Source: an uncultured Clostridia bacterium (GTDB lineage Bacteria; Bacillota; Clostridia; TANB77; CAG-508). Taken from it: DNA of 64,000 nt. Location of the stretch: the NCBI GenBank assembly GCA_947628825.1, contig CANRBH010000002.1:8626-72625 (forward strand), in the 5' to 3' direction. Positions 41,466 through 41,538 of this stretch are shown one piece after another. The translations under genes and the position numbers were made by a program. The notes beneath the pieces were generated by a model. It worked only from the letters and a program-made list of their open reading frames with translations. It ran no database searches and was not told the DNA's origin. Each line of letters opens with the position of its first letter. Within the stretch, counting starts at the first letter, position 1.

Positions 41466-41538
41466 TGCAGGTTGGTGTAATAGTAGCATACAAGGATCCT
41501 AGCCTTGAGATTCTTCTGCGATGGAGAGCCTGCAACCA
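41466..41538 (+). tRNA. Non-canonical phage tRNA with anticodon CCU (reads AGG), CCA encoded
   Basis: TGCAGGT T G GTGT AATAGTA GCAT A CAAGG ATCCTAG CCTTG AGAT TCTTC TGCGAT GGAGA GCCTGCA A CCA. 7-bp acceptor, U33 and A37 present. The D-loop lacks GG and the T-loop is 6 nt without TTC. Confidence 0.7.

Follow-up and report, generated by a model that had tools for sequence, protein, structure and literature searches.

The prophage carried by a 64,000-nucleotide stretch of DNA from an uncultured Clostridia bacterium (assembly GCA_947628825.1, contig CANRBH010000002.1, positions 8,626 to 72,625; hereafter the window) encodes an unusual 73-nucleotide tRNA at positions 41466-41538 of the forward strand. 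This candidate has an encoded CCA end and the anticodon CCU (41498-41500), the exact complement of AGG. Our comparative analyses suggest that it is quite probably a phage-encoded descendant of the formylmethionine initiator tRNA (tRNAfMet) that carries CCU and starts translation at AGG codons. On a broader scale, a widespread group of gut Clostridia phages is likely to have evolved a private start codon, wherein the CCU initiator starts a conserved set of mostly structural genes, internal AGG codons are still read as arginine, and the tRNA elbows linked to an HNH endonuclease gene have been rebuilt without loss of function.

The AGG starts were recognized by scanning for a strong Shine-Dalgarno (SD) sequence followed 5-10 nucleotides downstream by an in-frame codon that heads a long open frame, with a stop codon shortly upstream. 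The late region of the prophage holds 18 such frames headed by ATG and nine headed by AGG. The corresponding counts are six and none in the 15 kb of host DNA, and 20 and two (one of them genuine) in the early region. Ten AGG starts are clear, with the SD 7-10 nucleotides upstream, and one at 57100 is ambiguous, which agrees with the nine to eleven starts proposed in an earlier reading of the window made without database searches (the sequence-only reading). All ten frames are open, including a tape-measure frame of 1310 codons, and their first ATG, GTG or TTG lies 6-106 codons downstream.

The ten genes, all on the forward strand, comprise a PDDEXK_15 nuclease gene (27279-27629), a gene at 37542-38084 with the arrangement AGGAGG, 7 nucleotides, AGG (likewise AGG in its orthologue at L065, one of the loci from other contigs that we number with the prefix L), an HNH gene with HNH_3, NUMOD3 and NUMOD1 domains (41015-41461), a small-terminase-like gene assigned by position only (43312-43830), a small Cys-rich gene with AGG at or beside the aligned start in relatives (45105-45374), the portal gene (SPP1_portal by Pfam match, 45509-47245), the major capsid gene (SU10_MCP by Pfam match, 47882-48877), a gene with a weak tail-tube profile match (50918-51352), the tape-measure gene, whose first ATG, GTG or TTG is 106 codons downstream (52104-56036), and a DUF6711 gene (56680-57057). 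Protein profiles reach into the N-termini that only the AGG starts provide. For example, the PDDEXK_15 profile is matched over positions 1-123 from residue 4 onwards, and the first ATG, GTG or TTG of that gene is 92 codons in. The DUF6711 profile match (7-133/134) requires the AGG N-terminus, and the match to the capsid profile starts at position 5 when AGG is taken as the start versus position 18 when the first ATG is used. The nuclease gene lies in the early/replication region, far 5′ of the tRNA cluster, and AGG starts are therefore not limited to late genes.

Orthologues of these genes (40-93% amino-acid identity) could be mapped in up to 13 relatives. In the case of seven genes out of the ten, all orthologues recovered have an SD-served AGG either at the aligned first codon or next to it. 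The aligned first codon itself is AGG in the small-terminase-like gene (13/13, 'AGG caa ...'), the HNH gene (8/8) and the tape-measure gene (6/6, with 'AGG gct/gca/tct ...' in relatives), and most homologues of the HNH gene conserve the sequence 'AGG tat caa tat' found at 41015. Some alignments of the portal, the capsid and the gene at 50918 begin a few residues in and give an extrapolated first codon that is not AGG, with an AGG within a few bases of this codon in nearly every case. The capsid offers an independent view of the start position. Among the closest 120 clusters of capsid homologues (90% identity), the gene call begins at an internal Met in 109 (window residue 18, 19 or 32), and eight, mostly more distant (68-75% identical), have a Met aligned to window residues -2 to 3, as in MKDTETVQSF versus RNETETVQSF in the window. 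Since distant homologues carry a Met at the aligned position, the AGG sits at the position of initiation. In public annotations, the capsid proteins of these phages appear systematically to lack their N-terminal residues, and the portal, tape-measure and other genes have probably been called truncated as well.

Other explanations for these starts were considered and rejected. Re-initiation after a mini-open reading frame (mini-ORF) cannot apply generally, since ATG is absent from at least five of the ten AGG leaders. Use of a neighboring near-cognate codon is contradicted by the orthologues, several of which have an in-frame stop (taa/tga) as the codon before AGG, and in which a start codon directly after AGG is never present. 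A sequencing or assembly artefact is excluded by the presence of the same AGGs in independent assemblies from IMG/VR, ENA, Logan and the metagenome-assembled genomes of GTDB. Mini-ORFs between SD and AGG do exist at individual genes: an ATG-TAA precedes the capsid AGG (47867-47884, also in L042), and an ATG-TTG-TAG overlaps the small-terminase AGG (43297-43314, forward strand). The ambiguous case concerns a gene for a 902-residue tail protein, wherein GTG at 57091 and AGG at 57100 are three codons apart ('aggtgagaaat AGG tat caa') and either could be the start.

Relatives of the prophage were found through its large terminase in IMG/VR (L003-L007, 74-78% identical) and in GTDB metagenome-assembled genomes of uncultured Clostridia (L042, 83%; L044, 76%). 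All of them carry, in this order, a tRNA, the ROOL RNA, a tRNA with the anticodon CCU, tRNA-Pro(UGG) and more tRNAs, and wherever the tRNA region of a related Clostridia phage could be recovered, a tRNA(CCU) was present. These tRNAs align with the candidate, and the slot between ROOL (or the HNH gene) and tRNA-Pro is common to L003-L007, L042, L044 and L064-L078. We built a covariance model, R1, from 12 relatives with the window sequence excluded. In a search of the 64-kb window, R1 placed the candidate first (56.5 bits, E~7e-12), with each of the seven genuine tRNAs ranking below it, and found no second tRNA(CCU). Because the model contained no window sequence, this rank makes membership in a phage tRNA(CCU) family a solid assignment for the candidate, as judged by sequence and pairing. 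A search for homologues in related phages and covariance scoring had been proposed in the sequence-only reading, and the occupied slot in relatives and the score of 56.5 bits are what they yielded.

Structure statistics were collected for 17 distinct members of the family, the candidate among them. In the cloverleaf alignment, 95.5% of cells are paired and 15 of 21 pairs have changed on both sides, with the D, anticodon and T helices paired throughout (100%). The anticodon CCU and U33 are invariant in 17/17 members and the stems vary freely. Several other searches were uninformative. When IMG/VR was scanned for exact copies of the anticodon arm, the T-arm or the Arg-Pro spacer, the matches were no more than chance ones, and the 17 loci from a metagenome scan for the spacer are most likely chance 18-mer matches. 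A megablast search of INPHARED with the region found no close relative, and a distant search of the same collection found weak partial matches to tRNA-Met and tRNA-Arg (phage tRNA-Arg at E~2). One contig (L077, from ERZ27249248) reads CTCCCTA in place of the CTCCTTA of L074-L076 in an otherwise identical tRNA just past the HNH stop, which gives the anticodon CCC; the contig has low coverage, and the substitution may be genuine or erroneous.

The resemblance of this family to bacterial initiators is extensive. Its acceptor stem, CGCGGGG...CCCCGCA-A-CCA, is as in tRNAfMet. Positions 1 and 72 are unpaired in 16 of the 17 members (C.A in 11, C.U in three, G.A and A.A in one each), the candidate alone having a pair (U:A), whereas they are paired in 92 of 94 other tRNAs of the same loci, one of the two exceptions being a tRNA-Met(CAU) with C.A. 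All 17 members have G2:C71 and C3:G70, and 16 have A73; the candidate has all three. Work on E. coli has established an unpaired 1:72 together with G2:C71, C3:G70 and A73 as the signature of bacterial initiators for formylation and exclusion from EF-Tu. Canonical family members further share with tRNAfMet the type of D-arm (A11:U24), the variable loop AGGUC and the T-arm GGUUCAAAUCC. The tRNA(CCU) of L080, CGCAGGGTAGAGCAGTTCGGTAGCTCGTCAGTCTCCTAAGCTGAAGGTCAGAGGTTCAAATCCTTTCCCTGCAACCA, is plainly an initiator tRNA with a changed anticodon, and that of L091 is similar. The latter and E. coli tRNAfMet are 84.4% identical over 77/77 nucleotides (E = 2e-14). The E. coli query sequence was verified against 5426 genomes, and L091 gave a median of four matches per genome, equal to this initiator query, with initiator-type tRNA-Met genes alone being matched. 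In the phage GenBank collection, too, the best matches to L091 are initiator-type tRNA-Met genes, at 86% identity or less, and the CCU family is therefore apparently absent from that collection. The family members show 57-83% identity. At the level of sequence, these comparisons demonstrate that the tRNA(CCU) family descends from a bacterial initiator tRNA by a change of the anticodon from CAU to CCU. A separate initiator-like tRNA, CGCGGGG...CCCCGCAACCA, is present at positions 2871-2947 of MT835577.1 (L100), an unverified human-gut phage scaffold. Its anticodon loop, CTCAAAA, gives the anticodon CAA, the complement of the start codon UUG, and its T-stem is apparently imperfect.

The distribution of AGG starts follows that of the tRNA. 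A pattern scan of IMG/VR for an initiator-type acceptor stem combined with CCU returned 20 stretches (16 newly fetched contigs, mostly 28-33% GC), although one of these loci, L081, has the anticodon CAT (reads CAU). SD-served frames in the 20 loci are headed by ATG in 118 cases, AGG in 43, AGA in 12 and AAG in 13; for unrelated phage loci (237 kb) the counts are 105, 4, 14 and 9, respectively. A cleaner comparison is with two related control lineages (L103-105 and L106-108) in which the module of genes for terminase, SPP1 portal, SU10 capsid, tape measure and DUF6711 is the same. Their capsid genes start with ATG. Neither ARAGORN nor R1 (run with filters off) detected a tRNA(CCU) in these lineages, and 13-17 ATG starts were counted versus not a single AGG start. 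By comparison, there are five AGG starts in L042, six in L044 and nine in L007, all of which carry tRNA(CCU). In these genomic comparisons, tRNA(CCU) and AGG starts strictly co-occur.

Within genes, the meaning of AGG is unaffected. Internal AGG codons align with R or K at 84 of 96 sites in relatives of the AGG type and at 13 of 26 sites in relatives of the ATG type, and thus the elongation code is unchanged. A general recoding of AGG to Met can be discarded, since Met is aligned at just one of 122 internal AGG sites. The frequency of internal AGG per 1000 codons is 2.5 in host genes, 3.8 in early phage genes and 4.0 in late phage genes. This 1.6-fold rise is small, which makes supplementation of a rare codon a weak motive for keeping the tRNA.

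These frequencies bear on the possibility that the candidate is an ordinary, though degenerate, elongator, namely a tRNA-Arg(CCU) supplementing a codon, AGG, that is rare, with the AGG starts being read inefficiently by host tRNAfMet or being unrelated. A CCU anticodon does read an Arg codon, AGG is indeed rare in the host and somewhat commoner in the phage genes, the paired U1:A72 and the U11:A24 of the candidate are of the elongator type, and there is weak BLAST similarity to phage tRNA-Arg genes (E~2). Nevertheless, we consider this explanation unlikely. Such a tRNA would not be expected to have the acceptor stem of tRNAfMet, to belong to a family with 1:72 unpaired in 16/17 members versus 2/94 other tRNAs, or to have a relative such as L091 that is 84% identical to the E. 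coli initiator. The main identity element of bacterial arginyl-tRNA synthetase (ArgRS), as known from E. coli and T. thermophilus, is A20, and position 20, as read from the D-loops by eye, is U, as in tRNAfMet, in the candidate and in most other members. Furthermore, internal AGG is raised only 1.6-fold, whereas start positions show strong enrichment and conservation of AGG, and related phages without tRNA(CCU) also have no AGG starts. The sequence-only reading had favored a role in initiation over a degenerate tRNA-Arg, and its preference appears well placed in light of the fMet-like family, the conserved AGG starts, their absence in tRNA-less relatives and the barely raised internal AGG.

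The candidate is a divergent member of the family, and its fold deserves separate consideration. It begins five nucleotides past the last base of the HNH stop codon, which ends at 41461, and reads TGCAGGT-TG-GTGT-AATAGTA-GCAT-A-CAAGG-ATCCTAG-CCTTG, continuing after CCTTG with AGAT-TCTTC-TGCGAT-GGAGA-GCCTGCA-A-CCA. The cloverleaf is its minimum-free-energy fold. As a single sequence, this fold gives z = -0.93 relative to shuffles, with 28/200 shuffles equally stable, and the sequence by itself therefore cannot prove that the fold exceeds chance. The rank given to it by R1 confirms the 73-nucleotide cloverleaf originally described. The earlier description of a 7-bp acceptor stem and a 4-bp D-stem also holds, with the qualification that both contain wobbles, U.G at 7:66 and G.U in two of the four pairs of the D-stem. 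Likewise, the pairs listed at that time, U1:A72, U11:A24, A29:U41, G30:C40 and G31:C39, are all present. The elbow had been called aberrant and without G18G19 or T54-Psi55-C56. The T-loop (U54-G55-C56-G57-A58-U) does have 6 nucleotides, with U55 changed to G and one of positions 59/60 deleted, and G18 is lost, but alignment of the D-loop gives A18-G19, so that G19 is retained along with U54, C56 and A58, and the elbow is remodelled and not absent. The candidate was predicted to score poorly with standard tRNA finders, and this proved correct. ARAGORN in bacterial mode made no call, even with lowered thresholds, and Rfam RF00005 gave no match at E<=10 in a 1.2-kb search; the canonical elbow (G18G19, T54-Psi55-C56, 7-nucleotide T-loop) is missing and the model threshold is not reached in either case. 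The mitochondrial mode of ARAGORN calls a tRNA at exactly 41466-41538, anticodon cct.

The remodelled elbow is associated with the HNH gene. This gene is inserted between ROOL and tRNA(CCU) in the window and in L064-L079, and is absent from that site in L042, L099 and others. Its domains (HNH_3, NUMOD3 and NUMOD1) and its presence or absence at one site among close relatives mark it as an HNH cassette. Homologues that are 60-82% identical occupy the same site on other contigs, always with an AGG start and always with tRNA(CCU) within a few bases 3′. The T-loop is non-canonical in seven of eight HNH-linked lineages versus none of six distinct HNH-less copies from the terminase search, a correlation among related sequences. 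The HNH-linked non-canonical loci are the window, L064, L065, L066, L069, L073, L074 and L078, with the loops UGCGAU, UGCAAUU/CGCACUU, GGCGGUA, GGCAGUG, AGCGUUA and GUCGGCA, and most of these copies are missed by ARAGORN; L070 is HNH-linked yet canonical. The type represented by L064 and L074 apparently needs a bulged base in the 3′ acceptor strand. The elbow changes are not random. G18 is changed to A together with U55 to G in the window, L065 and L069, and positions 54/58 covary as U/A, G/G and A/U. C56 is retained in all copies, G19 is retained where the D-loop allows, and all T-stems pair, with many compensated changes. All stems of the candidate are kept despite the rebuilt elbow, and we therefore take this elbow to be remodelled but working, and not decayed. 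The change may have been driven by the endonuclease, as a homing enzyme that recognizes the conserved T-arm DNA of HNH-less alleles would select for elbow alterations of this kind.

The same features could be expected of a pseudogene that is decaying after insertion of the HNH gene, in a prophage that is defective or that has another source of the tRNA. Consistent with decay are the rejection by Rfam and by ARAGORN in bacterial mode, the 6-nucleotide T-loop with loss of G18 and U55, a single-sequence fold no better than shuffles, and the status of the candidate as the only family member with a 1:72 pair. However, its four stems are intact and its differences from relatives are compensated, positions 18 and 55 have changed jointly in three independent HNH-linked alleles (window, L065 and L069), and 54/58 covary. 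Seven HNH-linked non-canonical lineages keep their AGG starts and have no second copy of the tRNA in the DNA recovered. In the window itself there is no other tRNA(CCU), yet ten AGG-start frames are open, and identical copies of the candidate occur on five assembled contigs. A pseudogene is thus an improbable explanation in our judgment. Most improbable is a non-decoding, tRNA-like processing or decoy element, for instance a cleavage site for RNase P or RNase Z from which ROOL and the HNH mRNA are released, or a decoy against a host tRNA-targeting defence: the tight packing of the ROOL/tRNA array, with the candidate 5 nucleotides past the HNH stop, and the aberrant elbow would suit such an element, and phage tRNAs elsewhere have reportedly been proposed as counter-defence tools, but a processing signal has no need of a fixed anticodon, so the invariance of CCU and U33 in 17 diverse members with variable stems counts against it, as do the encoded CCA and the use of AGG, the exact complement of the anticodon, as a conserved phage start codon.

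There are also observations that weigh against an initiator tRNA that starts translation at AGG. The candidate itself lacks the unpaired 1:72 that is a hallmark of initiators, and Seong and RajBhandary reportedly found in 1987 that U:A at this position lets E. coli tRNAfMet bind EF-Tu. The initiator-type A11:U24 is present in only 7 of the 17 family members, and the candidate has U11:A24. Adjacent to the anticodon loop, the candidate has two G:C pairs and not three; across the family G30:C40 is invariant, and all three pairs (29:41, 30:40 and 31:39) are G:C only in L070 and L089. The non-canonical elbow with its 6-nucleotide T-loop could interfere with ribosome binding or with processing by RNase P. 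With regard to co-occurrence, the sample is modest and phylogenetically clustered. Moreover, L089 (IMGVR_UViG_3300010163_000397) carries an initiator-type tRNA(CCU) at 4934-5008 in a phage contig of 52% GC, with four G:C pairs beside the anticodon loop and a D-loop without GG, and the SD-based scan found no AGG starts on this contig.

If the candidate is indeed an initiator, its use could proceed as follows. The tRNA(CCU) would be cut from the ROOL/tRNA array and then charged. Charging would most likely be with Arg, because C35 and U36, both present in the candidate, are the anticodon elements for ArgRS, and only Arg would make leakage into elongation neutral. Formylation would rely on the weak or absent 1:72 pair, G2:C71, C3:G70 and A73, and IF2 would deliver the tRNA to the P site on SD-AGG leaders, wherein AGG lies 7-10 nucleotides past the SD. 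As the 1:72 position of the candidate is U:A, some leakage into elongation may occur, but this would be harmless if the tRNA carries Arg, since internal AGG means Arg. The approximately ten genes with AGG starts would then depend on the phage's own initiator. The chemistry of such a system is feasible, given that an engineered CCU/AGG pair works in E. coli: of the 12 orthogonal pairs compared, i-tRNA(CCU)/AGG had the largest fold-changes whichever strain was tested, and in one strain it exceeded AUG (bioRxiv 10.64898/2026.04.16.719103).

The wider context of the candidate is a prophage in DNA of about 28% GC, which follows host genes that extend to about 15 kb of the window. Its integrase is encoded at 15009-16148 on the reverse strand and its large terminase at 43793-45091; the portal is of the SPP1 type and the capsid of the SU10 type. 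The RNA cluster, entirely on the forward strand, has tRNA-Phe(GAA) at 40278-40352 and tRNA-Trp(CCA) at 40362-40436 on its 5′ edge, followed by ROOL (RF03087, 327 bits) at 40429-40995 just 5′ of the HNH gene, the HNH gene, the candidate, and the downstream partners of the conserved array, tRNA-Pro(UGG) at 41608-41683 and tRNA-Gln(UUG) at 41754-41828. A promoter at 37258, upstream of this cluster, had been assumed in the sequence-only reading; the consensus match is there, but it is a consensus match alone, and the region holds fewer such matches than its shuffles.

The 5′ end of ROOL overlaps the preceding tRNA by a few bases, and its 3′ end adjoins tRNA(CCU) in HNH-less relatives. ROOL scores of about 290-327 bits were obtained in the window, L003, L004, L005, L007, L042, L044, L082, L086, L097 and L099. 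Five other tRNA(CCU) loci are without ROOL, which is therefore no obligatory partner. Judged by eye, the spacer at 41539-41607 and the tRNA-Pro of the window resemble those of L042 closely, and the tRNA(CCU) body is much more diverged. The spacer contains two hairpins (41545-41600, forward strand), acaagc...gcttgt and gagagc...gctttctc, which recur in L042 (7791-7855), L064, L074 and L078. Skipping-rope RNA (RF02924) occurs in L005 (7935-8074), L042 (16656-16748) and L044 (8143-8284), in two instances within the tRNA cluster. In L005, a homologue of the HNH gene with an AGG start is located directly 5′ of tRNA-Gln rather than tRNA(CCU). Pfam matches to the anti-defence families Acb2/Tad1-hairpin or Tad3 were found 5′ of the RNA cluster in L065 (1452-1667), L070/L071 (1843-2040) and L103 (975-1328).

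Every natural initiator known to us reads AUG with a CAU anticodon. Our search of open-access papers and bioRxiv turned up no description of AGG starts in nature or of a naturally occurring initiator tRNA(CCU). If our interpretation is correct, the candidate and its relatives would be the first natural initiator tRNAs with a non-CAU anticodon, and would extend variation of the genetic code to initiation. The identity of the start codon would be evolvable in nature via a dedicated initiator tRNA, beyond engineered cells, and phages would possess a new type of control over host translation, in the form of a gene set that can be started only with the phage's own tRNA. In practical terms, hundreds of phage protein families would have been given truncated N-termini by standard gene callers. 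The system would also raise the questions of which amino acid comes first, whether it is formylated, and how IF2 and IF3 accept an initiator that lacks the three G:C pairs and whose elbow is, in some alleles, non-canonical.

The closest parallels are found in several known systems, each of which matches in part. Bacterial initiator tRNAs, such as those encoded by metZWV and metY of E. coli, share with the family the acceptor stem, the unpaired 1:72, G2:C71, C3:G70, A73 and CCA. In contrast, the family has CCU in 17/17 members and not CAU, retains only G30:C40 of the three G:C pairs, and includes in the candidate a tRNA with U1:A72, U11:A24 and a remodelled elbow. The HNH gene next to it is comparable to the free-standing homing endonucleases of phage tRNA clusters, such as SegB of T4, in that an HNH_3/NUMOD gene lies directly 5′ of a tRNA, is present or absent among relatives, and is accompanied by a tRNA allele that by eye is far more diverged than the flanks. 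SegB is a GIY-YIG enzyme, whereas the gene in the window is predicted to encode an HNH enzyme.

Another relevant precedent is provided by crAss-like and Lak phages, wherein suppressor tRNAs accompany the recoding of stop codons in late genes, and the stop is read as an amino acid during elongation. As in the Clostridia phages, a phage tRNA alters the reading of a codon, and a subset of largely late or structural genes depends on that tRNA. Here, however, the apparent change is at initiation, and the meaning of AGG in elongation (Arg) is unchanged. Most similar in design are engineered orthogonal initiators, such as the amber i-tRNA(CUA) and i-tRNA(CCU)/AGG, which likewise consist of an initiator body whose anticodon has been altered and of a corresponding non-AUG start behind an SD. 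These are laboratory constructs, whereas the phage pair is apparently natural, serves about ten genes and is conserved over many lineages. The natural CCU/AGG pair is apparently the same one that performs best in synthetic orthogonal initiation.

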